Below, piece by piece: positions 30,642 to 50,956 of a stretch of DNA of 64,000 nucleotides. This stretch comes from a virus, in the IMG/VR virus record IMGVR_UViG_3300032268_001296, positions 32,001-96,000 of that record. One strand, 5' to 3'. Below the pieces are notes generated by a model. The model saw nothing but the letters and a program-made list of their open reading frames with translations, was not told where the DNA came from and made no database searches. The translations under genes were made by a program, and so were the position numbers. Position 1 is the first letter of the stretch; the number at the start of each line of letters is the position of its first letter.

Positions 30642-31225
30642 AAATTATTGGAATTTCTGGTGCCGCAAGAAGCGGCAAAGATACATTTGCTGATTGTTTG
30701 ATCGAAGTTTTGAGCAGCATGAACATCGCTTCTCATAAAATGTCTTTCGCAAATCAATTAAAGATCGAAGTAAAAGACTTCTTGCAAAAGACAATCGGAA
30801 TTGACTCTTTTACTCAAGATGATGAGGAAAAAAAGATAATCCGACCATTTCTAGTAACATGGGGAACTGAAGTTCGGAGAAAGCAGAATCCAAATATCTG
30901 GATCGATCATGTTGAATCTCAACTTGATGAAAACAAAGTTAACATTATAACTGATGTTAGGTTTGGTAATGAAATGGATTGGCTTAAAGACAAAGGAGGA
31001 TATTCTGTTTTTGTAAGCAGATATCTAGAAAATGGCGCTATGGTTGAACCAGCAAATGAAACAGAATCTGAGAATAACGATATTCTCATAAATCGTTCTG
31101 ATTTCCAATTATCTTGGACTACTGTTGAAAATTTAAACTGGCTAACAGCCGTAGCTTATGAAACACTTCATAAGCTTGTTCCAGAAAAAGAATTAGAATT
31201 ATGGACTCAGACTTGTCGCTTATAA
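30638..31225 (+). CDS. Deoxynucleoside monophosphate kinase
   Basis: IGISGAARSGKDT, SFANQLK, WGTEVRR, ITDVRFGNE. Confidence 0.9.
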   Translation: MKIIGISGAARSGKDTFADCLIEVLSSMNIASHKMSFANQLKIEVKDFLQKTIGIDSFTQDDEEKKIIRPFLVTWGTEVRRKQNPNIWIDHVESQLDENKVNIITDVRFGNEMDWLKDKGGYSVFVSRYLENGAMVEPANETESENNDILINRSDFQLSWTTVENLNWLTAVAYETLHKLVPEKELELWTQTCRL

Positions 31226-31770
31226 TCAAAATAAAAGATAATCAGGACAGTGATAGTCTAAAAGAGTTGATAAATAGGCACTCTGGTATTTATCTTGATA
31301 TGGTTAATAAAACTGTATCTGATAGTTGTAACTTTATTAATAAAGCAGATATAATACTAGATAAAGACTTTTCTATTTATTCTGCCGCTTTAAAATATAA
31401 AGCAGATAAAAATACAAAATTCCCAACTTATTTGGCAAATGAAACTCGCTGGAAGTGCCTCAATCTATATAATAAGAATAAAAAAATGATTGAAGAGCCT
31501 CTTGATGATTCAATCAAGGAAAAACAAAGCTCAGAGGATTTCTTGTCAGATGTTCAGTCTAAGGAAATCTTGAAAAGAGTTTTAGACATGGCTGAAAAAA
31601 ATTCAGATTCAAGAGTGAAAAAGATTATTGACATGAGATACTCTTTCGGATATAATAAAGCTCATTCTTGGAAAGAAATCTCCAAAGAACTTAATATGAG
31701 TATTCAAGGATGTATTGATATTCATAATAAGTTTATCAACAAAGCAAAAAACGAAATAAAAAATGTATAA
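31201..31770 (+). CDS. Phage sigma70-family factor (regions 2 and 4)
   Basis: KELINRH, KYKADKNTKFPTY, KKIIDMRY...SWKEISKELNMS (HTH). Confidence 0.8.
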   Translation: MDSDLSLIIKIKDNQDSDSLKELINRHSGIYLDMVNKTVSDSCNFINKADIILDKDFSIYSAALKYKADKNTKFPTYLANETRWKCLNLYNKNKKMIEEPLDDSIKEKQSSEDFLSDVQSKEILKRVLDMAEKNSDSRVKKIIDMRYSFGYNKAHSWKEISKELNMSIQGCIDIHNKFINKAKNEIKNV

Positions 31771-32146
31771 CACAATTATCGCAATCGGTCATCTTGTTAA
31801 AGATCCAGAAACTCGCGTCACGAATACTGGAAAGTCTATTTGCACTTTCCGAATTTGTATCTCTGAAAGTAACGCAAAGAATAAGTGTTTTATTGATGTG
31901 GAAACTTGGGAGAAGACTGCTGAAGTTTGCCAAAAGTATTTGGTAAAGGGTCGTGAAGCAATGGTGGAAGGAGAACTTTCCATGTCTAGTTGGACTGGAA
32001 AAGATGGAAATGCTCAAAGCAAGATGTTCATCAAGGGAAATAAGGTTAAGTTCCTTGGTGGTGGACAAAAAAGCGATAAGCCTACAACTTCCGCAGCAGT
32101 TGTCGATTCTGAATCAAGCGACACCGACGAAGATATTCCGTTCTAA
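31763..32146 (+). CDS. ssb: Single-stranded DNA-binding protein
   Basis: IGHLVKDPE, W...AE, KG..VEGEL, C-terminal DEDIPF. Confidence 0.95.
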   Translation: MYNTIIAIGHLVKDPETRVTNTGKSICTFRICISESNAKNKCFIDVETWEKTAEVCQKYLVKGREAMVEGELSMSSWTGKDGNAQSKMFIKGNKVKFLGGGQKSDKPTTSAAVVDSESSDTDEDIPF

Positions 32147-33225
32147 TGAAAAAACTACTTATTGAAGCTCCGTTGAACTCTTTGAGTTTTGGCAACGTCT
32201 CTTATAACATTCTTCGTGAAATCTCGAAGATGGAAATCGACGTTGGGCTTTTCCCAGTTGGGAATCCAGATCTTTCTGCATTTGAACAAGATTCTCTATT
32301 TAATGATTGGCTTCAAAAGTCGATTAATCAAAGATGGGATATTCTAGCTGATAAGCCAGCTTCTTTTAAGTTGTGGCATCTTAATGGTAGCGAAAATCGC
32401 AAGTCTCAAAATCAAAGTCTTTTGACTTTTTATGAGTGTAGCGAGCCCACTAAACAAGAAGTATCTGTCTGTAAGTCTCAGGACAGAACTTTCTTTAGTT
32501 CTAATTACGCGAAATCTTTGTTTGAAGATTCTGGCTGCAATAATTGCAGTTTTGTCCCAATGGGATTTGATAGTGATTTCCACGTAAACAACAAAACCTA
32601 TTTAAGTGGAGTTATCCACTTTGGTTTGATGGGAAAATTTGAGAAGAGGAAGCATACTGAGAAAATCATCAAGGCTTGGCTCAAGAAATTTGGCAATGAT
32701 AATAGATATCAGCTTACTTGCTGTGTTACGAACCCATTCTTCAAGCCAGAGCAGATGCAGGCAATTATTGCTTCTGTCTTAGATGGAAAGAGATATACAA
32801 ATATAAACTTCCTTCCATATCTGAAGACAAACAAAGAAGTCAATGAGCTAATGAATGCTATTGATATCGACTTGACTGGTCTTAGTGGCGCAGAAGGCTG
32901 GAATCTTCCAAGCTTTAATGCAACTTGTCTTGGCAAGTGGAGCGTTATTTTGAATGCTACATCTCACAAAGATTGGGCAAATTCACAAAACAGTATCTTA
33001 GTTGAGCCAAGTAGAAAAATTCCAGTTTACGATAACTTCTTCTTTTCTAAAGGATCTGAATACAATCAAGGAGAAATCTTTGATTGGAATGAAGACGAAG
33101 TTATTTCAGCTATGCAAATTGCGGCTGATAAATATGGATCAGTTAACACAGAAGGTTTAAACCTTTCTAAAGAAATGACATATAAGAATACTGCTGATAA
33201 AATACTCAGCTCCATTTTTGAATAA
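32146..33225 (+). CDS. GT4-like glycosyltransferase
   Basis: GKFEKRK, SGAEGWNLP, ATCLGK. Confidence 0.8.
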   Translation: MKKLLIEAPLNSLSFGNVSYNILREISKMEIDVGLFPVGNPDLSAFEQDSLFNDWLQKSINQRWDILADKPASFKLWHLNGSENRKSQNQSLLTFYECSEPTKQEVSVCKSQDRTFFSSNYAKSLFEDSGCNNCSFVPMGFDSDFHVNNKTYLSGVIHFGLMGKFEKRKHTEKIIKAWLKKFGNDNRYQLTCCVTNPFFKPEQMQAIIASVLDGKRYTNINFLPYLKTNKEVNELMNAIDIDLTGLSGAEGWNLPSFNATCLGKWSVILNATSHKDWANSQNSILVEPSRKIPVYDNFFFSKGSEYNQGEIFDWNEDEVISAMQIAADKYGSVNTEGLNLSKEMTYKNTADKILSSIFE

Positions 33226-33241
33226 TAAAAGGAGGTCTAAC

Positions 33242-33637
33242 TTGCCAATCTACATATATCACAATACGGAAACAGATGAGTATATTGAAATCGTTCAGTC
33301 TATGAACGAAGTTCATGAATACTTTGGTAAAAACGGAGATGAGAATACTTGGAAGCGAGTATTTACTGTTCCGAATGCTTCAATTGATTCTCAAGTAGAC
33401 CCCTTTTCATCTAAGCAATTTGTAGATAAAACACAAAACAAAAAAGGCACATATGGAGACCTTCTTGATAGAAGCGCAGAACTGAGCGATAAGAGAGCGG
33501 CTTTAGCTGGAGGTAAAGATCCAGTTAAAGAGAAATACTTCTCTGATTATTCTGCGAAACGTAAGGGAGCAAGGCATCCAGATCAAATGAAATCATTCGA
33601 AAATAATAAAGTCAAAGTTGACTTCGGCAAAAGTTAA
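33242..33637 (+). CDS. FmdB-like small protein (Cys-less); TTG start
   Basis: MPIYIY...E.IEIVQSM...WKRVF; AAGGAGG SD at 33229-33235. Confidence 0.6.
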   Translation: MPIYIYHNTETDEYIEIVQSMNEVHEYFGKNGDENTWKRVFTVPNASIDSQVDPFSSKQFVDKTQNKKGTYGDLLDRSAELSDKRAALAGGKDPVKEKYFSDYSAKRKGARHPDQMKSFENNKVKVDFGKS

Positions 33638-34549: not shown

Positions 34550-35737
34550 TTATATATCGTTCCAATTAACAGTTATGTTTTGCCATAAAAAGTTTAAATT
34601 ATTCCAAGTAATAGCATTTGGAATATTTCTCTTCATGAGAAATCCACCAGTTTCATTAGCTTCAAAAGAGAAATCAGCATTGAATGAAATAGTATTATTA
34701 ACTGTTGAAGAAAAACTTAAATTTTCTAGCTTTGCATTTTCTATTCTATAAAAACCTGTAACTAATCTATCAGAATCTCTAAAAGATACTTCAAAAGAAT
34801 AACCGCTTTCACTTGTTAGTATAGATTGAAATTGTCCACTTGATATTCCAGACACTAAGCAAGATATTCCAGCTTTTCCATTAACTGGATATTCTAATTT
34901 GCGACCATAAACATAATTGCTGCCAAGACCATATAAATCAGTTCTAGATAAATCCAAATTTAAATCAAAACTCTGCAATATTGGATTTCCTACAGCATCT
35001 AATGTTATACCTCCTACTTGCAGATTGTTTAGTTGAAATGAGCTATTATTAGATACGACTACTGGAGGATTGAATTCGTTTCTTAGTTTTGGATCATTGG
35101 ATATATATCCATCTTTTAAACTATCATATAATCCAGAAAGATCTAAAAATCCAGATCCACTATTGTTTCCAGATATACTGTTAATTGCTGGAATAGATAT
35201 TCTTCCTCCAGTTATATTTTCGAATCTAACATTAGAAGCAGAAAATCCAACATCCACAACTGGCACAGAATTTAAATTAAATGAAACAGAATAACTGTTT
35301 AAGAAGCAATTGCCAAAAGTTAAAGCTTGCATTCCGCTAAAATTAACTGAAGAAGCTGGCTTTTTAAAATCATCAAATCCATCTTTAATATCTTCTGGAT
35401 CAACGATTACATATATGTTTTGATCTCTATTTTTAAGATCTCTAACGCATGGCGCATATCCAGATCCGCTAGCATTAAATCCAAACAATATCTCATTGCT
35501 GCAATATGGATTTAAGTAGTAACTTAAACTTACATTCGCTTGTGGCGCTCTAACAATATGATTTACAGCATAAGACTGGCTTCCTACTTGTTTTATCTTT
35601 TGGTGCTCGTTTGAAATAGAAAAATCACACTTTTGAACGAGAGGAAATAATCTTGCAGTATCTCCTGTTGTTTTCCAAGCTGGAAAATCTCCCATTGCGA
35701 TAAACGCAGAATTACTTTTTAATACTTGTCGATTCAT
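34550..35737 (-). CDS. Tail-tube paralogue (minor tail / tip protein)
   Basis: Aligns by eye to 49820-50956 (VQKCDFSIS vs VQSANYNFS; VSLSYYL vs LDFSYYL; IENAKLE vs IKGAKLD). Confidence 0.65.
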   Translation of the reverse strand: MNRQVLKSNSAFIAMGDFPAWKTTGDTARLFPLVQKCDFSISNEHQKIKQVGSQSYAVNHIVRAPQANVSLSYYLNPYCSNEILFGFNASGSGYAPCVRDLKNRDQNIYVIVDPEDIKDGFDDFKKPASSVNFSGMQALTFGNCFLNSYSVSFNLNSVPVVDVGFSASNVRFENITGGRISIPAINSISGNNSGSGFLDLSGLYDSLKDGYISNDPKLRNEFNPPVVVSNNSSFQLNNLQVGGITLDAVGNPILQSFDLNLDLSRTDLYGLGSNYVYGRKLEYPVNGKAGISCLVSGISSGQFQSILTSESGYSFEVSFRDSDRLVTGFYRIENAKLENLSFSSTVNNTISFNADFSFEANETGGFLMKRNIPNAITWNNLNFLWQNITVNWNDI

Positions 35738-36681
35738 GTTCCTGTAGGTATTATGCCCAGTGGGTCTTCAATTAGATTGATTTCAATATTATGGGAATCT
35801 AAGTAGTTCCAAGAATGACTCCAAGATGGAGCGTAAAAAACCTTCGGTCTATTATAAACAGATGGTATCTGATGTAAAAATCTTCTATACCCAGCTTTAT
35901 TTTCTAAAAAGTGCATTATAGACTTAGCTTCAATTGTTGGTATATTTGTGAATTTATAAGATAGGTTTACTGGAGCCAAATGTTTTCTAGTTTTGATTCT
36001 TTGAATAAATGAATTCTTAAATTCTATTTTATCTACTTTAATCTGAACATCATTTTGAAGACCGATATCTGGTTCAAAAAAGAAAGATTGAGTCCACTTT
36101 GAACTTGATCCAGTTGGACCGTCTATGCTTGGCGAAGACGAAGTGTGATCTCCTGAACAATAATAATAGTTGTTTAATTTGTTGCTGCTTATGCCGCTAT
36201 AAATTATATCATACTTTTTATATGATCTTCCTGTTGACCAATGCTGCAAACCAGAGTTTATAAATGTCATTCCAGACCAATTTAATAAAGTCGGAGCTTG
36301 ATTAACATCAATTGATATTGCCACTTCATAGTGGTTTTTATTAATGTGATTTACTGCATAATTATCAGTTACTCCACTGATTGGCTTATAAAAAGCTGAA
36401 GCATCAGAGAATCTATATAATTCACATCCAGACTTTGACTCTATAAAATTTACAAGTTTTTGAGAATCAAATTGATTTAAATCAAATCTTAATTCAAACT
36501 TCGCATCTAGACTATTTATTGATAATGGAATTAAATTATAGTATCCATCTTGAGTTTCATAAACGTTTGCTTTAGAAGAAAACGAAACTCTAGATCCATA
36601 AACTGGACTATATGTTAATCCAGTAATTCTATTTCCAGAACTAAGTAATATGTTATTACTTCTATCGTAAAATGTACTCAT
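35734..36681 (-). CDS. Minor tail protein (distal-tail-like, duplicated domain)
   Basis: Follows TMP; internal repeat KLVNFIESKSG / SIMHFLENKAG. Confidence 0.6.
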   Translation of the reverse strand: MSTFYDRSNNILLSSGNRITGLTYSPVYGSRVSFSSKANVYETQDGYYNLIPLSINSLDAKFELRFDLNQFDSQKLVNFIESKSGCELYRFSDASAFYKPISGVTDNYAVNHINKNHYEVAISIDVNQAPTLLNWSGMTFINSGLQHWSTGRSYKKYDIIYSGISSNKLNNYYYCSGDHTSSSPSIDGPTGSSSKWTQSFFFEPDIGLQNDVQIKVDKIEFKNSFIQRIKTRKHLAPVNLSYKFTNIPTIEAKSIMHFLENKAGYRRFLHQIPSVYNRPKVFYAPSWSHSWNYLDSHNIEINLIEDPLGIIPTGT

Positions 36682-37470: not shown

Positions 37471-40400
37471 TTACTTTCTCAATGAGCCTCCCAATCTCTT
37501 TTCGTCTTGAATAACTTTAAGAACAACATCTTTGATTTGTCGTGCAAGCTGTTGTTTTTGTTCTGATGCGCCTCCATCGGTTGTTTGAGAAGATTTGCCA
37601 GTTGATCCATCAACATTGATGGTGATATTTCCAGCTGCGCTAGAAGCTTCAATAAGCTCGTCAAGCTTGGCGATGAGCTTCTCGTTCAACTCTTCAGTCT
37701 TTTCTTCTGTGACGATGCTTCCTGCGCCAGCATTGAGCGCTTGTAGATTACCAGCACCAATGTTTTGAGCAGCAGAGCGATTCATAATGAATTCGCCGCC
37801 TGAAAGCATTGCTGGAACTGTGTCGATTCCAGCTCTGAAAGGAATTGAACCTCCAGTTGCAAATCTTTCGTTTGCGCGTTCTTCTATATACTGTCCTTGC
37901 GCGTCAAATGGACCAGTAGTGAATGCTGGTATGTTATTATTATAAACACCATTATTAGATCCTCCAAAATTTAATGGAGAAACTCCTAAACCTCCCAAAG
38001 CAGAATTTACTTCATTTATTTGATCATTATCATATGGATTCACATTATATCCATTTGGAGCATTTTTATTTTTTGATGTTGAATATGATCCCCCAGAACT
38101 AAATAAATTAGATAAACCACCTTTTCCTTCAAAACCACTCCAAATTCCTTTAGCCGCATCAGTTAATCGTGCTGTTCCAGTTGCACCAGATCCAGCGTAA
38201 GCCTTAAAGAATCCAGATCCAGCAGCTAATACCACCGACAATATGAGTTGCTTTTTCAGTGCATCTTTTTCCGCTTCTGCTTGTTTTCTTGCTTCAGCTT
38301 GAGCTTGCATTTCTTGCATATACAAACCAAAAGCTTGTTCTTTCGCAGCTCTAGTTGCTTCAGCTTGAGGACTGTTATTGCGTCCAAAATTTGTCAATCT
38401 AACACTTTCTGGTTCCAAGTTTATAGAAGCATAATTTCCTTGATTTATTATCTGATCTCTAGATCCAGAAGTATATCCTTGAGTTGCAAACTTAAGTAAG
38501 TTGCGAGTTCCTTGAATTCCGCCAAGTCCATAAGTTCCTGGAGTAAAGAAACCTCCTTGACCACTTTGTATCATTCCTCCTTTTGCGTAACCGCCTAATG
38601 TTCCATTATTGATTGCTTCTAAAAATTGAGGTCCATATTTACCAACTGACTTTTTGTTGATAACATATTCGCCGCCCATTAACATTGCAGGGACATCATC
38701 TTTGGTTCCCGATCCACCTGAAATCATTCCTCCAGAGGCTTTGCCATTTCCTGCAAAAATTTTAGAAATGGATGAAAATACTCCTGAAGATGAATTTGGA
38801 TTTGATCCAAGAATCGAATCTATAGCATTAGACATTAATTTCTTGTTCAATTGTCTTACAAAATCTAAAGCTCCAGCTCTAAGAGTATCACTTAATGATT
38901 TTCCACCTTCAATAGCTTCAGAAATACCATCTACTAAATTATTTTTAAATTGAACGGAAGCATCAACGATTGTCTTATTAAGCTCCAACGTTCTTTCTTC
39001 GTTAGTTTTACTAAACTCTTCTGCAAACAACTGAGGGATTGTTTTTACCTGTCTTTTTCTCGCTATTCTTGCCGCTTCTTCTGGGCTTTGTCCTCTTTGC
39101 TGATTAAGAGTTTCTATTTCATAAGCAATTTCAGCGTTTCTTCTTCCAGATATAGAAGTTAATTTTTCTAATTCTAAATCTTGAATTTTTCGATCAATGA
39201 TATCTGTAGAATCAAGCAGAGATCTTCTAAACATTTCTAAAGCTGATATAACTGGCTCTATTGCTCCAGCTTCTCTTGTGCGAGCATCTGCTGCCGCTTG
39301 GGATGATTCAGCGTCTAATTGAAGACTTTCAGATTCTTGTTTCAATTTTAGGATAAAGTCTTTGATAGCTTGATTATCTTCTTCATTAAATCTAGTCGCG
39401 CCAATAAGGTTTTCAGCTTCTGTTATTAAGCTGCTCATAGTTTTCGCGCTTTCAAAAGCATTCCTATATGTCATTGCTGAAATATCATCTGTTGGTTTTG
39501 CTAAACCCAACAATTCCCCCCTTTTTTCTTCGAGCATTTTATTATAATTTGCAGCATTTTGCACAGCCACAGTATTAGCTTCAATCGCAGCGATTTGAGC
39601 GTCTATTACTCTAATTTCTTCAGTTGATCTACCTAATTTTGAAGCTTGTAATTGAGAAATTCGCTGAGTATTTGAAAACTCAGATCTTCTTGAAGATATG
39701 TCTATACCAAAAGCTCTTTGTTGGGAAGCTCTTTGTGCGGAAGAGATTATATCTTTTATTGTTGATGCTTGGTTTTTATATTCCTCTGTTTTTTGTTGTT
39801 GAGTTTTTAAATCTTCCTTATCTAAATTATATTTCTTTAGAAGATTATCTAAAATCTGTTCATTTTCTTTTCTCTGAGCTTCTGTGAGATTAGTTCCAGT
39901 ACCCAACAATATATTTATTTCTCCTAGTAATTTAGTAACTGTATCTTTATTTTTGAAATCATCTTCTGAAAAAGTTTTTAATTGTTCTTCTAGCTTAATT
40001 GTTTGTTTTTTATCTGCTACAAGCAATTTAGCTTTATCAATCTGTCCTTTGAGAAGATTAGAAGTTTCGTCTATTAATTTTCTATCTAAATCGCGCAAAG
40101 CTATTTTATTCTCTAAACTTCTAATATCTTTTTCGCTTAAATTATTAAGCTCCTTGGCAGAAAGCAATTGAAGATCTAATTCTTGAGTAGTTCTTTGTTG
40201 TGCAATTGAAAGATCAATAGTATTCTTTAATTGATTTTGAGCATAAGAAATATTCATTAAATCTAATGCTTCTTTAGCAGTATCTGCAAATGCATTCTTA
40301 AGATCTATAGTTGCATCATATATTCTAAGAATTTCACTTTTTACAGCTTCGCTATTTATGTCAAATCCTATTTTTTGATCATCCGTTAATTGGCTTAAAA

Positions 40401-43400
40401 TTGCATTTTGAATCATTCCTATCCCTGTATTTGGATTTGGAGTAGATCCACTTTTTAAATTTTCCAAATCAGACATTATATCTTGTCTAGATTTACCAAT
40501 AAACTCTTTTCCAATAGTTCCTGTTGGAGATAAATCTAAATTTCTTTTTGCATTTTTTAACTGCGATGATGTAAATATTAATTTAGAAAAAGAACCTGTT
40601 AATTCATCTACTTCTTTAACAGTTATTTTCCCATCTGCTGATTTTTTTCTTATTTCATCCCACATTCTGTTATAGCTCACACCAGCAGCGTCTGCATTTT
40701 TAACAACATCTACTAAACTTTTTTCTAATTCTCCAGCTGTAAAGAAATCTGAGCCTTCAAAATCAGCCATAAAACGAGCTGTCATGCTCTCTCTTGCTGC
40801 TCCTCTGACTAAACCTATTGCCGAAGATTCTATTTTCTTTTTTCCTGGTTCAGATAAATTTTCAAATGTAAATGCCGCATTTTTCACCGCTTCGGACATC
40901 TTGGCTATATTAGCTGTAGCTGCTTTAGTAATACCATAATATTCATCCATTATTTTTCCACCAGCCGAAAAAGATGCTATTGCTCCAGCTGCTGCTAATC
41001 CATATGGCCCTAACTTTGCTAACGCTGGACCTACTTTTCCGCCAATTTGGCCTAAACCTTGAATAGCGAATGCTGCTGTCACAAAACCTCCAGCACTTTC
41101 TGATACTATATTAGTATATTTTGCAAGTTGTGATGAAGCATCACTTGTAGCTCCAGTCAATATACTAAATGCTCCTTGCAACGCAAAGATAGTTCCAAGC
41201 ATATCTTTTTGTCCACCTTGTGCTTGAACAGTAGCTTCTTTACCAGTTAAGGTTTTGCCTTTACCAAAAGCTCCTTTTGACTGTTCAATGATTGCTTTTC
41301 GAGTTGCATCTGAAGATTTTTTAAGAGCTTCTCTATCATCTTCTAGAGCTTTTATTCTATCTTGCGCTGCTTTTTTGTTTTTACCTCTAGCTTGTTTTTC
41401 ATCAGCCGTTGCTTTTCTTAATTCAGTTATAAGATCTGCATAAGCTTTTCCATAATTTCTAGATTCTTCCGCTAAAGCATCACTTCTTGTTTTACCTACG
41501 TATCCAGAAATGTCTGGCGCATCTGCATAATTCGGCACAAATCCACTTGCCGCACCATATGTTTGCGGATTCATGCCTTCTTTTCTTGCTCTATTGATTC
41601 CTTGAAATCCACCTGCTGGTTCATCACGGCGATTAGCAACCATTAATCCCATTGGATTAGCCGCGTTTTTAAGAGATGAATTTTTGTCTATGTAGATTTG
41701 AGAAGCAGGAACTCCCGCAGCCATTTCACGGTTAACTGCATCTTTAAGAGGATTTGCAAAATTTGGCAAGAAGCCTTTTGCGGCTGTTTTCTTTTTTTTG
41801 CTGTCTATATAGTTGAGCATTTTATCAACTACGTCTCTAGCTGGAGATCCAGTAATTCGCGCAAAACCTGGATCAATAAGACTAGCAACTCCACCATTAG
41901 ATGCCATTTCTCTCAATAAAGTCAGCGATCCAATCGGATCTGAAGGATAAGTTGAAAACTTACTCAAGTAATTCTCAGCGTTTTTATTAAGTATATAATT
42001 AGATCCATGTAAATCAGTAAGATCTAAACCTTTGGTTTTTACAGCGGAGCGTAGAGTTCCAAGTCCAAACAATCTAGCTTTGTCAGAACCAAGTGCTATC
42101 TTTCCAAGTTTACCAGATATAATTTCTTTTCTTATTGCTCCTCGTCTGTTGGATTCATTGAAACCAGACAATGTTTTTGGACCATAAATACCTGGGATGT
42201 TCAAATATCTATTGATATACTGACTGATCAACCATTCCTGAGAAAGTGCGTTTTTTGGACCATCTTTATAAAACTTCTTAACACCAACATCTATTCCCTC
42301 TTTTGTTCCAAGTCTTAAAAATCTAGCTTCTGCACCAGATCCAATTTCTCTACTTTTGCTAACAAAGTTTGGGATGTAACCCTTAGCGGCATTAGGAGAT
42401 TTTCTAGCTTTGGATTGTTGACTTATTTGAGATAATATTTTTGGAGCGATGTCTCCATCGTTCATTGACTTTTTGATAAGAGTATTAACTTGACCTTGAA
42501 AATTTTCCGTAGACCCACCTCCTCTTTTCGCATCACCTCTTACAGCTTTTACTCCCAACATTTGATTCATTGCAGCTGGGTTAGTAAAATCAAATGGTCT
42601 ATTTTCATTTTTTGGATCAAATGAATCAGAAAGACCTTTCATTGTAGTCAATGCAGCTTTACTAGCAGCTTCAAAAAGCTGACCTTCTGCACCCGCAGGA
42701 AGAATTCCTCCTGTGGATGTAGATTTAAGATTTCCTAATTGATCTGCAAATTCTCCCGCTTGCATTCCAGAATAAAGTCGCCCATATAAAGATTGAGCGA
42801 GCGTCACGATTGGACCAGCAAAAAGTTTATTGATTTCTGAAGATATTTGTTCGAAATTCTTTTTAGTAGGAACTCCAGTTTGTTGAATATTGCTTAAAAT
42901 GATTTGATCATCATCTAAAATACCTCGCGGCTTATTTTTTTTAAAATCAGAACCTTTTAGTTTTGCCGAAACATATCCAGAAGCATCTCCATTCCTCGGA
43001 GTGACTAAAGCGATTCCTCCTAAAGTATTTGCGTCAATTTTGAAATCGAGAGCGCCTTCTTTAAGTTTCTGCTGTCTTACCTTATCTTCTGTTTGTTTTC
43101 TTTGTGTAGCAATAGATGGATTTCTTTTAAGAACGTTATCAATATTTGATTGGTAAGTTTCTAGGCCATTAGGGAAAACGAATTTTTTTCCACCTGGTTC
43201 TTTTCTGTAGCTTTCTAAATCTGGATAATATTGTCTAATAGTGTCTGCTAAATCAGCAAAGTTTGGTATAAATCCAAAAGAAAGATTTTTTATATATTTC
43301 CCAAAATCATCAATTTTTCTAGGTCTTCCATATTTATTCGATCTATATTTATCAGTATTGATTAAATCTTGTTTTAACGTTTTTGCTTTTGAAAAATTTC

Positions 43401-45741
43401 CTCTATCTGATTCATCAGAATGAACTAGCAAACCATTTACTTTGATATTATCTTTATTTTTTGTCCAAACATCTAAAGGTAAATTACGACCATAATTTTC
43501 TATATTCGCTCTTAAAAATTTTAATTTTACATCACTATCGTCCCAAGACCCACTTTTAACCTCTAAAAGAGAAGTTGGACCTTTGAAGCCGTCCACTGCT
43601 GAATTTTCCTTTCCGAACATTCCTCCAGTAGTATATCCATACTGCTTAGCGATTCTTTTCTCATAATCATTAGTTGATTCTCCTTTATTTCTAGGGACGT
43701 ACAATTTTTGATATCCATTTCCAATCAAGTTAACATTATCGTCTTTTGATAATCTTCCATCTGAAGATTGAGATATATTAATTTTTGGCACAAGAGTCGT
43801 ACTAAAATATTTTACTATTTCAGAAACTTTTGCAAAATTTGGAATCAATCCGCCAGATGCAGTGATCTTCTTAGCTCCAGATGGCAAGCCCATAGAGCGA
43901 ACCATGTCTCTGTTAAAGATAGCTGTTCCGCCACTTCCTCCAAAATTAGGAACCGCATATTCTCCAGTATGAGCTACAATAGATCCTTTTTTGCCTTGAC
44001 CAAAATTAAAATTAGGAATAACAACTGGACGATCTCCAGCTTTTGCACCACCAACACCTTTTTTAATGTCGGATGATTCTTGCGATACAGCAGGCATGTA
44101 TCCGCCAGCCGCTTTAGGAACTCTTAAGCCTTCTCCAGAGCTTCTTACTCCTTGTTGATAAAGAGGAGCTGCTAGCGAGCTTGCTGTAGAAGCCATTCTT
44201 CTCATTGCTGCTTCTTGCATTACAATAGCGTCAGACATGACTTTGATCTGAGCCGTGCGATTTCCTTCTAATGCAAAAAGTTGACGCTGAAGATTGATAT
44301 TCTTAGAAAGAGCTGAAGCAATAGACTGTTCAACATTTTGAATCTCTTTTGCTGCTTTACCAATTCCAAAGAAACCTTTTAAGCTTGCAAAACCAAATTG
44401 CGCAAGATCTTTTGAAAGCTTTAAGATAATAGCTGCAAATAAAGCTAAGCCTGGACCTGTAACAAGATTTCCAATACCTTTAGCTAAACCTCTGAAAACA
44501 TCTCCCAACGCACTTTCTTCGCCAAGAATTTTTTGGATACTTTCTAGAAGGCCATTAAAGAATCCAAGTAAACTTTTAGCACTGTCAGTGATGCCAATTT
44601 TTCCCAATGTAGCTCCAAGCTGTTCTGCACTTAAAGATGTCTTATTGATTAAAGCAGCTAATGTAACATTTAGAGCCGCATTCTTTTCATAAGCTTGATT
44701 GGTGCTTTTCAAAGATACTTCGGTAGCTTTAAAAGCTACTGAAGATTGACTGCTCAAATCCTCTAAAGTTGCTAATAATTTATCAATCTGGAATCCGCCA
44801 CCAACTTTTTCAGTAATCTCTGCGAGCTGTACTTGATTAAGACTTTTAATTGTTGCCGCTAAGTTTTCGAGAAGTTTTGTAGCTGGCAGTATCTTGCCTT
44901 GAACATCTGTGACAGAAACTCCAAGCTGTTGTAAAGCTTCTAATGTATCTGTTCTTTGCAATCTTGTGAAGATCGTTTTAAACGAGTTACCAATAACTGC
45001 TCCACCAACTGATGTCTTTTCTTGAACTGCCGTAATAATACCAACCAACTCATCAAAAGAAACTCCAGCCTGTTTCGCAACAGATGACGATCTCTTAAGA
45101 CCTTCAATCAAATCCTTTTCAGAAACTGAATATTTTTGAGAAACAGTAACTAATTTGTTTAAAACTTCAGATGTTGTAATGCCTGTGCTTTTAAAAGCAT
45201 TAACTGCCGCAGTTAAACCAGAAACAGATCTTTCTGCATCCAATCCAGAAAGGCGAGTTAGAATAAGAGCATCATTAATTCTTTTAAGAGACTCTTCAGT
45301 ACTTAAACCTTGTCTAGCTAATTCAAGAGCGCCTTTTGCAACAGCATCAAATGATTGACCTGTATTTTTAGCTACGTTGAATAAAGAGTTTCCGAATTTG
45401 TCTAATTCAGAAGAACTTTTTTGGAAGACAGAATTGATTTCTGTTAAAGACTTTTCAACTGCAATAGTGTTCTTAACCAAAGAACTAAAAGCGCTAGATA
45501 CACTATTAATAATACCAACAGAAGCTCCGAACGCAAATACGCGAGCATTTGCCGCTTCCATCGACTTAGTGAATTCGTCAGCTTGTCCAGTAATGCGGCC
45601 AAGAGGTTGAGCTAATGCATTAATTTGACGGGAATTCGTTCCCAAATTAATTTGAGCGCCCTTGCCCGCATTTTTCAATGCTGCTTGAATGCTTGCTTCT
45701 AACCCTGTTTGTGTTACTGGTATCTGAACTGACGCTGGCAT
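37471..45741 (-). CDS. Tail tape measure protein with internal nuclease-like and kinase-like cargo domains
   Basis: N-terminal TP901-type TMP core (ELARQG, GNSFKTIFTRL), long helical region, C-terminal GG...VPAML.GGE(Y/F) motifs; SD AAGGAG. Confidence 0.9.
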   Translation of the reverse strand: MPASVQIPVTQTGLEASIQAALKNAGKGAQINLGTNSRQINALAQPLGRITGQADEFTKSMEAANARVFAFGASVGIINSVSSAFSSLVKNTIAVEKSLTEINSVFQKSSSELDKFGNSLFNVAKNTGQSFDAVAKGALELARQGLSTEESLKRINDALILTRLSGLDAERSVSGLTAAVNAFKSTGITTSEVLNKLVTVSQKYSVSEKDLIEGLKRSSSVAKQAGVSFDELVGIITAVQEKTSVGGAVIGNSFKTIFTRLQRTDTLEALQQLGVSVTDVQGKILPATKLLENLAATIKSLNQVQLAEITEKVGGGFQIDKLLATLEDLSSQSSVAFKATEVSLKSTNQAYEKNAALNVTLAALINKTSLSAEQLGATLGKIGITDSAKSLLGFFNGLLESIQKILGEESALGDVFRGLAKGIGNLVTGPGLALFAAIILKLSKDLAQFGFASLKGFFGIGKAAKEIQNVEQSIASALSKNINLQRQLFALEGNRTAQIKVMSDAIVMQEAAMRRMASTASSLAAPLYQQGVRSSGEGLRVPKAAGGYMPAVSQESSDIKKGVGGAKAGDRPVVIPNFNFGQGKKGSIVAHTGEYAVPNFGGSGGTAIFNRDMVRSMGLPSGAKKITASGGLIPNFAKVSEIVKYFSTTLVPKINISQSSDGRLSKDDNVNLIGNGYQKLYVPRNKGESTNDYEKRIAKQYGYTTGGMFGKENSAVDGFKGPTSLLEVKSGSWDDSDVKLKFLRANIENYGRNLPLDVWTKNKDNIKVNGLLVHSDESDRGNFSKAKTLKQDLINTDKYRSNKYGRPRKIDDFGKYIKNLSFGFIPNFADLADTIRQYYPDLESYRKEPGGKKFVFPNGLETYQSNIDNVLKRNPSIATQRKQTEDKVRQQKLKEGALDFKIDANTLGGIALVTPRNGDASGYVSAKLKGSDFKKNKPRGILDDDQIILSNIQQTGVPTKKNFEQISSEINKLFAGPIVTLAQSLYGRLYSGMQAGEFADQLGNLKSTSTGGILPAGAEGQLFEAASKAALTTMKGLSDSFDPKNENRPFDFTNPAAMNQMLGVKAVRGDAKRGGGSTENFQGQVNTLIKKSMNDGDIAPKILSQISQQSKARKSPNAAKGYIPNFVSKSREIGSGAEARFLRLGTKEGIDVGVKKFYKDGPKNALSQEWLISQYINRYLNIPGIYGPKTLSGFNESNRRGAIRKEIISGKLGKIALGSDKARLFGLGTLRSAVKTKGLDLTDLHGSNYILNKNAENYLSKFSTYPSDPIGSLTLLREMASNGGVASLIDPGFARITGSPARDVVDKMLNYIDSKKKKTAAKGFLPNFANPLKDAVNREMAAGVPASQIYIDKNSSLKNAANPMGLMVANRRDEPAGGFQGINRARKEGMNPQTYGAASGFVPNYADAPDISGYVGKTRSDALAEESRNYGKAYADLITELRKATADEKQARGKNKKAAQDRIKALEDDREALKKSSDATRKAIIEQSKGAFGKGKTLTGKEATVQAQGGQKDMLGTIFALQGAFSILTGATSDASSQLAKYTNIVSESAGGFVTAAFAIQGLGQIGGKVGPALAKLGPYGLAAAGAIASFSAGGKIMDEYYGITKAATANIAKMSEAVKNAAFTFENLSEPGKKKIESSAIGLVRGAARESMTARFMADFEGSDFFTAGELEKSLVDVVKNADAAGVSYNRMWDEIRKKSADGKITVKEVDELTGSFSKLIFTSSQLKNAKRNLDLSPTGTIGKEFIGKSRQDIMSDLENLKSGSTPNPNTGIGMIQNAILSQLTDDQKIGFDINSEAVKSEILRIYDATIDLKNAFADTAKEALDLMNISYAQNQLKNTIDLSIAQQRTTQELDLQLLSAKELNNLSEKDIRSLENKIALRDLDRKLIDETSNLLKGQIDKAKLLVADKKQTIKLEEQLKTFSEDDFKNKDTVTKLLGEINILLGTGTNLTEAQRKENEQILDNLLKKYNLDKEDLKTQQQKTEEYKNQASTIKDIISSAQRASQQRAFGIDISSRRSEFSNTQRISQLQASKLGRSTEEIRVIDAQIAAIEANTVAVQNAANYNKMLEEKRGELLGLAKPTDDISAMTYRNAFESAKTMSSLITEAENLIGATRFNEEDNQAIKDFILKLKQESESLQLDAESSQAAADARTREAGAIEPVISALEMFRRSLLDSTDIIDRKIQDLELEKLTSISGRRNAEIAYEIETLNQQRGQSPEEAARIARKRQVKTIPQLFAEEFSKTNEERTLELNKTIVDASVQFKNNLVDGISEAIEGGKSLSDTLRAGALDFVRQLNKKLMSNAIDSILGSNPNSSSGVFSSISKIFAGNGKASGGMISGGSGTKDDVPAMLMGGEYVINKKSVGKYGPQFLEAINNGTLGGYAKGGMIQSGQGGFFTPGTYGLGGIQGTRNLLKFATQGYTSGSRDQIINQGNYASINLEPESVRLTNFGRNNSPQAEATRAAKEQAFGLYMQEMQAQAEARKQAEAEKDALKKQLILSVVLAAGSGFFKAYAGSGATGTARLTDAAKGIWSGFEGKGGLSNLFSSGGSYSTSKNKNAPNGYNVNPYDNDQINEVNSALGGLGVSPLNFGGSNNGVYNNNIPAFTTGPFDAQGQYIEERANERFATGGSIPFRAGIDTVPAMLSGGEFIMNRSAAQNIGAGNLQALNAGAGSIVTEEKTEELNEKLIAKLDELIEASSAAGNITINVDGSTGKSSQTTDGGASEQKQQLARQIKDVVLKVIQDEKRLGGSLRK
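41524..44112 (-). repeat. Six dispersed copies of an AxxG[FYL][ILMV]PN[FY]A-like peptide within TMP
   Basis: AAGGYMPA 44089-44112; ASGGLIPNFA 43831-43860; LSFGFIPNFA 43255-43284; AAKGYIPNFV 42361-42390; AAKGFLPNFA 41755-41784; AASGFVPNYA 41524-41553. Confidence 0.9.
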
Positions 45742-45786: not shown

Positions 45787-46764
45787 TCATCCCATTAATT
45801 TCATCAAATCTTCCATATTCATACTGCCTCCATTTTTACTAAGCTCTTCTGAAAGACTAATTTTTTTAGCACTTGGATCAACAAACGATAAATCTTCTTT
45901 TGTTGCTCCGAAAACAGCAGTCGCTCCATTATCAGAATTTTTGAATTTTTCAGCAACCTTTCCAGAATTACGCTTGGATTCTGAGAATCTTAATACATCA
46001 GATGGATTCTTTTTTATACTATCTGGTATGTCTTCGTTATATTGGAAGATGTTGAAGAATATTCTAGCGTATAAAGCAAGTTTCAATTGATAAACGGAAA
46101 GTTGAATGATGGGCTTTCCATAGAAAGAAAAAAGGTTTTCAGTTTGAGATAAATACATATTGAAGAAATCTCTCAAGACTGCGTGTTGAATATGATCTTC
46201 GTTTAATCTGTTGCTGCACATTTGATGCTGCTTTATCAAATAACCAATATCGTAATCATTTATTTCTGCAAAACTTTCTTCTGTAAATAAATGTTCTTTT
46301 AAAGAAGGATCTTTGTATATAATATAGCGAATAAATTCCTCATTAGATCTTGAAGATCCATAATCTTCAGCAGTTTTACCCACAACCTCTTTTCTTTTTA
46401 CTTTAAGGATGTGAAGATCTTTTGATCTTTCGTCAATCGATTCTTGAGTTTTCTCTTTTTGAGAAGGAAGAACTAAATTAGATTTTGTCTGTTTAAGATT
46501 AGAAACCTCACTTTCTAATTCAGCTATTTTTCTATCGTCTTCCTCCGACCATAAACCATCGGCAACCAACTGATCAAGCATTTGCTTTTCAGTTGGTATG
46601 CCTTTTTTGATGGCTATGTTTTTGTATTTTTCGTAGTACTTATGAATATATCTTTGATCGCGAATAGAAAAATGCTTTAGATAAACAGGTTGACCTTTGT
46701 AATCAAACTCTGTATATCCATCAAATATCTCTCCTACGATAGCGATATATTCTTCTTCGCTCAC
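45787..46764 (-). CDS. Probable tail assembly chaperone (pre-TMP)
   Basis: Immediately upstream of TMP; helical and acidic. Confidence 0.5.
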   Translation of the reverse strand: MSEEEYIAIVGEIFDGYTEFDYKGQPVYLKHFSIRDQRYIHKYYEKYKNIAIKKGIPTEKQMLDQLVADGLWSEEDDRKIAELESEVSNLKQTKSNLVLPSQKEKTQESIDERSKDLHILKVKRKEVVGKTAEDYGSSRSNEEFIRYIIYKDPSLKEHLFTEESFAEINDYDIGYLIKQHQMCSNRLNEDHIQHAVLRDFFNMYLSQTENLFSFYGKPIIQLSVYQLKLALYARIFFNIFQYNEDIPDSIKKNPSDVLRFSESKRNSGKVAEKFKNSDNGATAVFGATKEDLSFVDPSAKKISLSEELSKNGGSMNMEDLMKLMG

Positions 46765-47522
46765 AGTTCGTTACTTTCTAATCTTGTCATCAAAGAATCA
46801 AATGAATCTTTGTCAGAAGCTTGATTAAAGAACCAGAAAGCTAGAATTGTCGCAGCCTTCTTAGTAATCAAGAAATACAACGGATCTTCAGATTCTTCTC
46901 TACGATAATATTCTTCAAGACGATCTTCAAAATCCCCACTGCCAAAATATGAAGATGGAGATTCTTCCCCTTCCTCTTGAATGTAAGTCAACATAATAAC
47001 ATACCAAAGAATAAGTCTATTTTGAGCTTTAACATCTGCGGTATGATCAAAGAGTGATTGATAATTAGATTCAAATTCTACAATTTGGCGACGAACATTT
47101 GCGAGTTCAGTTGTAATTTCTTCAACTCGCGCCTTTTGCTTGTCAGTCTTGTTTTGAATAATCTCTAATCTTGAATACTCATTTTGAATATCAAAAACCT
47201 TTTTGTAAGAATCTACCAAAGACTTAGCATCATCTTCGCTCATTAAGCCTCCTGTATCACTATACTTTTTAGCCAACATAGCTTTTGTCAGGATGCCCTT
47301 TTTGACACACTTACTCATTTCAACACTAAACTCAAGTTCAGCTTCTTCTAATTCTCTACGAGAAGGTCTCTTCAATTTAATCGTAACTGGAACTGAAGTT
47401 TTGATCTTCTTTTTGACCGTGATTTCTTCTTTGGTCTTCTTGTCAATCTTTGTTGTTACTTCTTCCTTTTCGATTTCCTTATCAACACTGAAGCTATATA
47501 GCTCTTTGATTTTGTTTTCCAT
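46761..47522 (-). CDS. Probable tail assembly chaperone
   Basis: Position; IKLKRPSRRE motif and coiled coil. Confidence 0.5.
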   Translation of the reverse strand: MENKIKELYSFSVDKEIEKEEVTTKIDKKTKEEITVKKKIKTSVPVTIKLKRPSRRELEEAELEFSVEMSKCVKKGILTKAMLAKKYSDTGGLMSEDDAKSLVDSYKKVFDIQNEYSRLEIIQNKTDKQKARVEEITTELANVRRQIVEFESNYQSLFDHTADVKAQNRLILWYVIMLTYIQEEGEESPSSYFGSGDFEDRLEEYYRREESEDPLYFLITKKAATILAFWFFNQASDKDSFDSLMTRLESNEL

Positions 47523-47862: not shown

Positions 47863-48321
47863 ATGCCAAGTTTAATAAATATCGCAAATCAATTAAAAGT
47901 AACATCCGCTTTTGCAAATTTGCACGATACATTCTCACGAGAGATTACTGTTTATAAAAATTCTAAACAAGTAACTATCTCAAGTTCTGCTCAATATAAT
48001 TCTATTTATGGAAATGCTGGAGCTTATAGCAACACTACAAATCAAACAGTGTCTTCCAAATTCATGGCGAGAATCTACTACATAAAGATGGACGAAGAAT
48101 TCTTGTCAGACTCAAGCTCCAATAAAGGATCTCAGAACAAGATAATAATGCCACAAGGATCTGTTAAGATTGTTGTAGATCCAGCTGGTTATCTTTTTAT
48201 AAAAGAAGCAAGAAAGGTTGAGTTTGATGGAAAAACCTTTTCAATCAAAAGCGACGGAATTCCAATGGGTCTTTTTGAAAATCAATACTACGAATTCTTT
48301 TTAACTCCATTAGATGAATAA
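47863..48321 (+). CDS. Probable head-closure protein
   Basis: HDTFSREITVYK...ARIYY...KVEFDGKTFSI; GTGTAA 8 nt upstream. Confidence 0.55.
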   Translation: MPSLINIANQLKVTSAFANLHDTFSREITVYKNSKQVTISSSAQYNSIYGNAGAYSNTTNQTVSSKFMARIYYIKMDEEFLSDSSSNKGSQNKIIMPQGSVKIVVDPAGYLFIKEARKVEFDGKTFSIKSDGIPMGLFENQYYEFFLTPLDE

Positions 48322-48920
48322 TGAAAATACCAAAGCAAGTATTAGACAGTATTAATTCTCAAGCTGGTAAGATTCTAAGATCTCAAGTAGAAGATGATTT
48401 GCGAGATATCGTCAATGATATAAAAAAACAAATGATTGAAGAATTTATGAATCATCCCATAACTGAAGAAATTATGAATGGCTACAATGCCCAAAACACA
48501 TCTAATACTTTAGGCGGTTATGGTAATTTATTTTCTTTTATTGGGTTTGATTCTGGCGATGCACCAATTATTCCTATAATTGAAATGCTGGAAAAAACAA
48601 ACGTATCATTTAATAGAACTTCTAAAAACATTACAACTGCTAACATTTTTATTCCGTCTGCCCGCGAAATATTTGCTCAAACTCCTATGCCTTGGGCCAA
48701 TGGAAGAAGTTGGGCCAAAGGAATAGAATCTGGAATTTCTGGATTAGGATTTTATCTTAATTCTTACGGAAAAGGCAACTCTAACGCTGGTATTCAAGTT
48801 GAATCAAAAATGAGAAGCGGTCGCTTTAAAAACGTTCCATACATATCAGCTTTAATAAATAAGTACAGAGCACTTTTCTCTAAAATTAATTACGAACAAA
48901 TAAAAATAAAATTATCATGA
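48321..48920 (+). CDS. Probable neck / tail-completion protein
   Basis: Position; GNLFSFIGF, PWANGRSWAKGIESG, PYISAL. Confidence 0.5.
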   Translation: MKIPKQVLDSINSQAGKILRSQVEDDLRDIVNDIKKQMIEEFMNHPITEEIMNGYNAQNTSNTLGGYGNLFSFIGFDSGDAPIIPIIEMLEKTNVSFNRTSKNITTANIFIPSAREIFAQTPMPWANGRSWAKGIESGISGLGFYLNSYGKGNSNAGIQVESKMRSGRFKNVPYISALINKYRALFSKINYEQIKIKLS

Positions 48921-49765
48921 TTGAACAATTTCAACACAGAGCAACAACATCATTCATGCTTTGGTTTGACAACTTTTTGCTAAAAAAAGGTCAAGCATTC
49001 AGCAATCAAACGGGTGTATTTCACAGGTATTCTGACGATAGATTAGATGATAGATATAAAGCTTTTGGCAGTGCTTATAAACAGTGGGTTACTGACTCTT
49101 CAATCAATGGAGCTGTTGTTCCTTCTGGTGTTTATGTAAACGGAGTTTTTCAACCAAGAAGTAATAGTCTTCTTTTGGATTTTGAAAATGGACGAGCTTT
49201 AATTAGTGGAGTATCTAACGCTGCATCAGTTACTGGATCTTTTGCGGTAAAAGACTTTAACATATACTTCACAAATGATGGAGAAGATGATCTGCTCGTA
49301 GATAAAAAGTACAATTCTAATCCAAGAGTTTATTCTGCGCCAAATACATATGTAGAACCATATGATCAAGTAGTTCCAGCTATATTCATTTCGAGCCAAT
49401 CAATGAGGAATGATCCTTTTGCTTTCGGCGGCGAAGATACTACTAAGATCTCAATGAAAGCTGTTGTGCTTGCTGAAAATCCTTATCAATTAGATGGAGT
49501 TCTTTCTATTTTTGCTGATTCTTACAATGAAGTTATTCCTAATATTCCATATTCTGGCAATCCAATTACTGAGTATGGAGATATTAAAAATGGGAACTTT
49601 TCTTACGAAAATTTAAAAACTCAATATGCAGGAAATCAATTCTTTTTTATTGAAGAAGTTGATACTTCAAAGTTGACAGATAAAGCTCGAAAATCTTTAG
49701 CAAATGATTTGTATATTGGCTTCATTGATTTCGAAATACATCAACAAAGAATGCCTAGAGAATAA
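48917..49765 (+). CDS. Probable tail terminator
   Basis: Directly before the tube gene; VPAIFI...PFAFGG. Confidence 0.5.
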   Translation: MIEQFQHRATTSFMLWFDNFLLKKGQAFSNQTGVFHRYSDDRLDDRYKAFGSAYKQWVTDSSINGAVVPSGVYVNGVFQPRSNSLLLDFENGRALISGVSNAASVTGSFAVKDFNIYFTNDGEDDLLVDKKYNSNPRVYSAPNTYVEPYDQVVPAIFISSQSMRNDPFAFGGEDTTKISMKAVVLAENPYQLDGVLSIFADSYNEVIPNIPYSGNPITEYGDIKNGNFSYENLKTQYAGNQFFFIEEVDTSKLTDKARKSLANDLYIGFIDFEIHQQRMPRE

Positions 49766-49819
49766 AAATAATTTCACGTTTAGTATTTGAAAATGTAAAC
49801 AAAATAAAGATAAAAAATT

Positions 49820-50956
49820 ATGGCACGTAACCGAGTAATTTACCAATCAGAAGCTTTATATGTTAGTGAAGACATTCTTTCCACTGCTACTGGAAAGCAT
49901 AGACAGCTTGATCGCGTTCAAAGCGCTAATTATAACTTTTCAATTAGTCGTCAAGATATTAACCAATACGGTGAATTAGCTCGTATTGATTCTGTTGTTC
50001 TTGATCCACCAACTGTTAATCTTGACTTTTCTTACTATTTAACTGACGGTACAAACGAAAGAGCTTTAGGATTCTATGTACAAACTGGAGCTGGAGGCAC
50101 TACTGGAAACTTCCCTTCTGGTCACATGACTGCTACCAGCGGCAAGAACTTCTTCATTGTTACCACAGCAGAAGGAAATGATCATAATAGCAACACAACA
50201 ATCGCAAACACTAAGTCAGTTATTGGCATCGGTAATGGATTCTTGTCTGATTATACTCTTGATTTAGCTGTTGGAAGCTTGCCAACTGTTTCTGTAACGA
50301 TTGAAGCTGCTAACATTGTAGCTACTGGAGTAACGTTAACAACTGGATCTGGAATTTCAGGTATTAATCCAGCAATCAATCCTACTGATGGCGCATCTTA
50401 TGCTTCAACTGGCATTGCTCTTCCATCTGGAGCTAGCAATCTTGGAAATGGCGGAATTAGCGCTCTTAGACCTGGTGATGTAACTCTTACATTTGGAAAT
50501 ATTACTGGCGCTGGATCTGGTGTTATTGCGGATTTAGCAAACAATGCAGACGGCATTCACATTCAAAGCGCAAGCTTGTCAATTCCTCTTTCACGCAGTC
50601 CATTGCAGCGTCTTGGAACTAGATTCCCATTTGCTAGAACAGTTGATTTCCCAGTAAGCTCAACTTTAACAGTTAATGCAATTGTTAATGAAATCACTGC
50701 TGAAAACTTAGCAGCAGTTCTTGATTCGAACATTACAACTGATTTAACATTAACTATCAAAAAGCCAGGAACTTCAGGAGCTACTAATGCTATGATTTAT
50801 AACATTAAAGGAGCTAAGCTTGATAGTGAATCATTCAGCTCAAGCATTGGTTCTAATAAGACTGTTGATCTTGTTTTCTCTACTCAAATCGGTGGACCCA
50901 ACGATCTTGATCATGGTGTCTTTGTAAGCGGTATTGGAAGCGGCTCAGTATTCTAA
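49820..50956 (+). CDS. Major tail tube protein
   Basis: G/T/S-rich beta protein MARNRVIYQSEALYV...RVQSANY...RQDINQYG; followed by a strong terminator. Confidence 0.75.
   Translation: MARNRVIYQSEALYVSEDILSTATGKHRQLDRVQSANYNFSISRQDINQYGELARIDSVVLDPPTVNLDFSYYLTDGTNERALGFYVQTGAGGTTGNFPSGHMTATSGKNFFIVTTAEGNDHNSNTTIANTKSVIGIGNGFLSDYTLDLAVGSLPTVSVTIEAANIVATGVTLTTGSGISGINPAINPTDGASYASTGIALPSGASNLGNGGISALRPGDVTLTFGNITGAGSGVIADLANNADGIHIQSASLSIPLSRSPLQRLGTRFPFARTVDFPVSSTLTVNAIVNEITAENLAAVLDSNITTDLTLTIKKPGTSGATNAMIYNIKGAKLDSESFSSSIGSNKTVDLVFSTQIGGPNDLDHGVFVSGIGSGSVF

Follow-up and report, generated by a model that had tools for sequence, protein, structure and literature searches.

A motif-delimited array of exchangeable modules in the tape measure protein of an uncultured phage

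Virion-borne multi-enzyme proteins and fusions of enzymes to phage tail tape measure proteins (TMPs) are known. For the Thermus phage P23-45, the N-terminal ~1,000 residues of gp96, a TMP of 5002 amino acids (aa), were identified as the virion RNA polymerase transcribing the first phage genes, and its continued attachment to the TMP pore was proposed (Chaban et al. 2024, PMC10770324). The polyvalent proteins of phages and conjugative elements were described as injected multi-enzyme mosaics, for which entry into the host together with the DNA, and a part in early conflict, were proposed; TMPs are not mentioned in that work (Iyer, Burroughs, Anand, de Souza, Aravind 2017, PMC5512222). This paper will focus on the TMP encoded by gene P0001 in a 64,000-nucleotide stretch of viral DNA (the window; positions 32,001 to 96,000 of IMG/VR record IMGVR_UViG_3300032268_001296), the first half of which carries a string of modules that are separated by a short joint peptide and exchanged among relatives. 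No description of a delimiter-bounded, shuffled module array in a TMP was found in the searchable full-text literature, in agreement with the first-pass annotation of the window, to which the architecture was unfamiliar; the arrangement is both widespread and well defined. A paper on the cyanophage MinS1, at first sight a match, turned out to be irrelevant.

In gp96, as is predicted for the TMP described here, a giant TMP has an enzyme encoded in its N-terminal part, in frame and before the transmembrane and ruler parts. However, gp96 contains one fixed enzyme, with no delimiter peptide, border units or module shuffling. A feature of gp96 itself is that the enzyme is present in the virion and active at the very start of infection (PMC10770324). 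The DxDxD motif of two-barrel RNA polymerases is absent from P0001, and the TMP is without an RNA polymerase. The polyvalent proteins are likewise very large mosaics of several unrelated enzyme domains with highly variable architectures, and the TMP here is multi-domain in the same sense. They have, however, no uniform delimiter peptide, and the examples given in PMC5512222 are carried in the phage head. For the hallmark domains of polyvalent proteins (MPTase peptidase, ArdC-N, methylases, SNF2/helicases), no Pfam match was obtained in the TMP or in five relatives.

Enzyme domains inside TMPs are also present in the muralytic TMPs (lysozyme, SLT, VanY, NlpC/P60, GH19), and relatives of the TMP here have such domains. 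In these cases, however, the domain is located near the C-terminus, outside the array, and is directed at the cell wall, and the TMP of the window has none. Both the muralytic TMPs and P23-45 represent single fixed insertions. In the bacterial polymorphic toxins, the VENN motif precedes the C-terminal toxins of CdiA, where a single C-terminal toxin with an adjacent immunity gene is secreted by the bacteria. Both systems have, at the point where homologues swap variable enzyme domains, a short conserved peptide as a marker. The TMPs differ in holding a serial array of up to 12 modules in a virion protein, with no immunity gene evident.

Border units, joint peptide and exchange of modules

On sequence evidence, the open reading frame (ORF) of P0001 is a TP901-type phage tail TMP (Table 1). 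Its core matched PF10145 at E 2.2e-32, with 113 bits compared to a curated cut-off of 33.2, and ten PHROG tape-measure families matched approximately the first 500 residues (best E 2e-49). The first half of the protein contains a 'cargo bay', in which border units (aa 544-637 and 1330-1406) enclose a string of modules that, by structure prediction, fold independently. Border unit A opens with the degenerate motif copy, contains two further short copies (IPNF at aa 576 and VPNF at aa 598) and closes with the first full motif. Module 0, at the other end, has a mean column identity of 66 % over 20 loci. Because module 0 is homologous to the Gly-rich unit A (hhalign probability 96.5 %, E 8.5e-10), the array is bracketed by two copies of one border unit. 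Carried between them are a probable PD-(D/E)xK nuclease-like module, one module without a fold match and a predicted minimal kinase module of the Bud32/RIO/OspG-like type.

Table 1. Features of the TMP gene, in window coordinates
Feature	TMP residues	Position	Strand	Basis or remark
TMP gene P0001, 2756 aa, 8.27 kb		37471..45741	(-)	one continuous ORF
PhageMin_Tail (PF10145) core	124-314	44800..45372	(-)	Pfam
Hydrophobic segment upstream of the array	422-444	44410..44478	(-)	Kyte-Doolittle scan
Border unit A, Gly-rich	544-637	43831..44112	(-)	constant in all homologues
Degenerate motif copy AAGGYMPA	544-553	44083-44112	(-)	motif scan
First full motif copy	628-637	43831-43860	(-)	motif scan
Module 6, probable PD-(D/E)xK nuclease-like	638-819	43285..43830	(-)	invariant residues, VIA, ESM Atlas, model
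Motif copy LSFGFIPNFA, after a predicted disordered linker (aa 786-828)	820-829	43255..43284	(-)	motif scan and model
Module 1, commonest variable module in the family	830-1117	42391..43254	(-)	model and alignment
Motif copy AAKGYIPNFV, pLDDT <50	1118-1127	42361..42390	(-)	motif scan and model
Module 3, predicted minimal protein-kinase-like domain	1128-1319	41785..42360	(-)	AlphaFold2, Foldseek, VIA, alignment
Motif copy AAKGFLPNFA	1320-1329	41755..41784	(-)	motif scan
Module 0 (border unit B), constant terminal module	1330-1396	41554..41754	(-)	20-locus alignment
Last motif copy AASGFVPNYA	1397-1406	41524..41553	(-)	motif scan; in homologues always 77 aa beyond the preceding copy
C-terminal region with two homologous units	2337-2400, 2640-2700	37642..38733	(-)	hhalign, PHROG matches

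The six repeat peptides listed in the first-pass annotation are present between aa 544 and 1406, five of them as full copies and the first as a degenerate copy without N-F, and the inter-motif modules have exactly the boundaries that were drawn at that stage. The pattern G-x-[LIVMF]-P-N-[FYW] occurs 5 times in the TMP, compared to 0.009 times on average when its sequence is shuffled (5000 shuffles; >500x chance), and in none of the other ORFs of the 112-kb genome. From 1005 copies in 240 related TMPs the consensus A-A-x-G-[FY]-[IV]-P-N-[FY]-A was obtained, with a mild Lys excess upstream of it. The copies are encoded by differing codons, and the in-register identical DNA run at the motif has a median of 7 nucleotides (nt) and a 95th percentile of 14 nt (269 copies, related loci). 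Since the codons differ and the identical runs are short, selection acts on the peptide and not on the DNA, as had been claimed at first pass. A further suggestion made there, that the repeat is possibly a recombination handle, was weakened, the DNA identity being too short for ordinary homologous recombination.

Two AlphaFold2 models were made, one of aa 1108-1412 (alignment of 27 rows) and one of aa 620-1130 (32 rows). The motif-bearing linkers are predicted to be disordered (predicted local distance difference test score, pLDDT, <50) and the modules between them to be folded (pLDDT 70-97), consistent with the earlier view of the repeat as a boundary between autonomous modules. A short linear recognition motif would fit this picture, because P-N-[FY] is strict within a disordered linker, the DNA is not conserved and basic residues are enriched upstream. 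The joint peptide may be an element that is specifically recognised, serving either in cleavage or as a signal for docking or threading, the latter directed to the tail lumen or to an assembly chaperone. Asn-dependent self-cleavage at P-N-[FY] is given a low probability, since the self-cleavage sites of viral asparagine peptide lyases act in a folded context and the motif is predicted to be disordered.

The position of the motif in disordered, accessible linkers would also suit a TMP that is an expression vehicle only, whose modules are excised within the cell that makes the phage, either through self-cleavage or through a protease of phage or host origin, and then act late in infection or are discarded without ever entering the virion. 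Some TMPs are processed during assembly, for example gpH of lambda, and such processing, with removal of the array, would solve the problem of space in the tail lumen. However, the TMP has no detected protease domain with which to do so, and the conserved borders and strict in-frame series across hundreds of phages are hard to explain for a purpose for which separate genes would suffice. In P23-45, moreover, the fused enzyme was found in the virion. We consider it unlikely that the TMP serves in this way.

The comparison of homologous TMPs proposed in the first-pass annotation was carried out. An exhaustive search with TMP aa 540-1410 resulted in 881 representatives (50 % identity), almost all of them as long as a TMP, and a word-indexed search in 315 related TMPs; the source records of the related loci are freshwater and marine metagenomes. 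Architecture statistics were obtained for 201 full-length TMPs (199 for the last-module, cluster and architecture counts). As anticipated, the flanks are constant: the median position of the first full motif is aa 631, a distance of 77 aa separates the last two motifs, and the last module is module 0 in 174 of the 199. Module number and identity vary, with arrays of 1-12 modules in 121 distinct architectures and 104 sequence clusters (68 of them singletons), a number to be read as an upper bound because some clusters share ends (e.g., modules 6 and 9). Internal breakpoints of similarity lie <=5 aa from a motif in 34 % of cases compared to 4 % at random, and their median distance from a motif is 13 aa compared to 52 aa at random, the TMP pairs in both figures not being independent. 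By this sequence comparison, the joints are the places at which relatives gain, lose or exchange modules as a whole.

In 8 of 120 TMPs (P0014, P0023, P0026-P0028 and P0030, and those of loci L010 and L049), the 'terminal' module 0 was also identified internally, an arrangement resembling a head-to-tail fusion of two arrays. More remote TMPs, originating from metagenomes of lakes and the sea (L048, L049, L051, L056, L059, L062-L065), retain the border unit and the motif and have arrays of 5-8 modules, which are almost wholly unrelated to the 43 clusters obtained from the first 120 TMPs. The module repertoire is thus far from sampled.

These comparative data also refute the view that the array is an artefact, consisting of a mis-assembled or falsely fused ORF with chance repeats. 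Such an origin might be considered for a metagenomic, linear contig with an estimated completeness of 87 %. However, hundreds of independent homologues have an identical layout, the frame stays open over 8.3 kb at 36 % GC, and the motif count exceeds chance as given above, which leaves the artefact a negligible probability.

The span of the array ranges from 76 to 2685 aa and is tracked by TMP length (r 0.83), and the non-array part is less variable, with a standard deviation of 278 aa compared to 495 aa for the whole TMP. That most differences in TMP length are accounted for by the array span, and that the modules are without Pfam matches, would be in line with modules that are non-catalytic structural stuffing, in the form of pseudo-enzymes or spacers which plug or tune the tail, e.g., by setting its length or sealing the proximal lumen. 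A span this wide, filled by ~100 unrelated module clusters, is however unlike a ruler. In the kinase-like and nuclease-like modules, no catalytic residue varies even in homologues with identities as low as 27-35 %. In addition, the ratio of nonsynonymous to synonymous substitution rates (dN/dS), determined against the closest locus of identical architecture (L001), is 0.49 for module 6, 0.33 for module 1 and 0.19 for module 3, values from one pair with dS near saturation that suggest purifying selection on all three. A role as mere stuffing is thus improbable.

Modules carried by the TMP of the window

Module 3 had been called kinase-like at first pass, and both fold matches and invariant catalytic residues agree with this. 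A two-lobed kinase fold is predicted in its model (pLDDT 86-97). Foldseek matched it to ULK1, Bud32 and RIO at E 6e-5 and probability 1.0, and in an exhaustive VIA-align search all 50 top rows were protein-kinase-like, with Rv3197 as the best (Z 10.7, root-mean-square deviation 3.7 Å, 142 residues), followed by APH(2''), Rio2 and Bud32, and with the minimal effector kinases OspG and NleH also among the rows. Residues G1134, G1136, K1155, E1169, D1243, N1248 and D1290 show no variation in 24-27 sequences with identities as low as 27 %, and G1292 is nearly invariant (at least 90 % of rows); the G-loop, the beta3 Lys, the alphaC Glu, the D-x-x-x-x-N loop and the metal-binding D-x-G are kept. Module 3 is thus predicted to be an intact kinase-like enzyme. 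In fold (Z 8.6-9.7), small size (~190 aa) and catalytic residues it resembles Bud32/PRPK, the RIO kinases, the Shigella effector OspG and NleH. In contrast to these, it matched no Pfam kinase family at E up to 10 and no kinase in a profile search against PDB sequences. It is also confined to TMPs, no free-standing homologue having been identified among proteins of 105-336 aa.

Nuclease-like domains had been assigned to two segments, of which only the first, module 6, retains the assignment. Three weak-to-moderate lines speak for it. E694, D717 and E727-V-K729 are invariant in 18 sequences, and these catalytic residues are located on the expected alpha1, beta2 and beta3 (helix 71-81 and strands 99-101 and 105-110 of the model, which has a pLDDT of 70-88). 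The top VIA rows for the region were FAN1 VRR-NUC, Hjc, R.BspD6I, McrC and YaeQ, all weak at Z 3.5-4.9, and the nearest named ESM Atlas clusters were all PD-(D/E)xK restriction-enzyme families (score 0.90). From residues and predicted structure, a nuclease-like fold is probable for module 6.

The second segment, module 1, has a conserved E...D...D-x-K without a recognisable nuclease fold. Of 120 TMPs, 65 contain it; its model is well folded (pLDDT 70-94), and the residues E1024, D1051 (in PFDF) and K1072 (in GDAKRG) are conserved. Its C-terminal part, mostly helical in the model, gave no nuclease match with VIA despite these residues. Modules 6 and 1 showed no profile relation in hhalign, and nothing meaningful was obtained in profile searches with either against PDB sequences. 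The joint model of the two found no Foldseek match in PDB or BFVD at E up to 0.001, and no free-standing homologue of module 1 was identified among proteins of 145-569 aa. A peptidase/IrrE identity, taken from a few Foldseek rows of the same model, was dropped, the protein being without an HExxH motif.

The nature of these modules bears on the place in which they would act. TMPs insert into the envelope and can carry wall-degrading domains, and hydrophobic segments flank the array, so that the modules might act in the envelope or periplasm during penetration, like muralytic TMP domains, and not in the cytoplasm. However, the substrates on which a kinase and a PD-(D/E)xK nuclease depend, ATP and nucleic acid respectively, are cytoplasmic, and a purely envelope role is therefore disfavoured. 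The muralytic domains recognised in five relatives (NlpC/P60, VanY, glucosaminidase) are located at aa 2680-3700, far to the C-terminal side; the array is thus not the usual cell-wall-cutting part of the TMP. An envelope site is about as doubtful as the stuffing role. For the ~19 module types of five multi-module relatives, no Pfam match was obtained at E 0.01.

Proposed delivery of the array

Since hundreds of related phages swap modules at the motif, the tail probably carries ready-made enzymes into the host. The reading preferred here, to which a probability of roughly 0.55 is given, is that the array rides in the TMP, is delivered and serves as a set of ready-made, host-acting enzymes, the joint peptide being a recognition element. 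The modules would travel with the TMP inside the tail and would exit the tail ahead of the DNA at infection. They would then act in the host as enzymes in takeover, counter-defence or competition, like the virion RNA polymerase of P23-45 gp96. A further-reaching and clearly more tentative proposal is that the joint is a programmed signal for cleavage, threading or docking. The TMP would then be a plug-in platform, from which any module placed between joints would be freed in active form inside the cytoplasm of the host, ahead of any phage gene expression.

Several points weigh against delivery by the tail. The presence of the array in the virion, its ejection, its delivery and cleavage at the motif are steps that we infer. 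The lumen of the tail tube is ~4 nm wide, and three chains of ~860 aa of folded domains would fit poorly in it and would need unfolding or single-file stacking. Pfam scans detected no protease or peptidase domain in the TMP. When each inter-motif segment was searched with Pfam and PHROGs, nothing meaningful was obtained and no module was matched. The evidence on folds comes from AlphaFold2 models with alignments of 27-32 rows; the nuclease match of module 6 is weak (Z <5), and module 1 is without a fold match in Pfam, PDB profile search, Foldseek and ESM Atlas. A tblastn search of 50,697 GenBank phage records gave no match and no cultured relative, and in 185,579 species genomes no prophage copy of the border unit was found to give a clue to the host.

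If the array is delivered, a large lineage of aquatic phages would deliver into the host, ahead of gene expression, a set of enzymes that can be customised. This would be a means of taking over the host or countering its defences for which only isolated cases have been known so far, among them the TMP-fused RNA polymerase of P23-45, the virion RNA polymerase of N4 and Alt of T4. The idea is testable, because the uniform joint peptide and constant borders define the exact points of module exchange; joints and borders also suggest a natural scaffold for loading foreign proteins into phage tails. As most module families match no known family, they form a defined pool of candidate early-acting effectors, and should the plug-in platform be true, the ~100 module clusters would represent a large unexplored repertoire of first-strike effectors.

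Genome surroundings of the TMP gene

The virus record holding the TMP gene is linear, with 112,197 bp, 36 % GC and a CheckV completeness estimate of 87 %. The TMP gene is located inside a tail gene block, with a minor tail protein (phrog_14) at 35734-36681, two genes downstream, and the large terminase subunit TerL is encoded at 57866-59725 on the same strand. Sheath families had no match in the genome. The virus is an uncultured phage of ~112 kb, probably with a non-contractile tail. The majority of the genes neighbouring the TMP gene matched nothing in PHROGs or Pfam, and the lineage is therefore remote from studied phages.

Directly upstream of the TMP gene, two ORFs of 325 and 253 aa were identified at 45787-46764 and 46761-47522 (-), overlapping by 4 nt. 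They matched neither Pfam nor PHROGs, and their position is the one where tail assembly chaperones or a tube protein are expected. If the joint peptide or the border units have partners, these two are the obvious candidates.

The two C-terminal TMP units are of the type A-x-G-G-x-I...D-x-VPAML-x-GGE[YF]-h-h-N. They are homologous to each other (hhalign 99.8 %) and match the PHROGs of unknown function phrog_35029 and phrog_13338. Between the border units and these units no significant relation was obtained with hhalign; a short A-x-G-G-x-I-P stretch alone aligns, weakly, at E 0.02-0.05.

At 47863-50956 (+), four opposite-strand ORFs (152, 199, 282 and 378 aa), without a Pfam match at E 0.001, break the minus-strand structural block between the head and tail genes. 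A plus-strand block for nucleotide metabolism and replication is located at 30117-33637 (+) and includes a dUTPase (30117-30641), a deoxynucleoside monophosphate (dNMP) kinase-like protein (30638-31225) and a single-stranded DNA-binding protein (SSB, 31763-32146).

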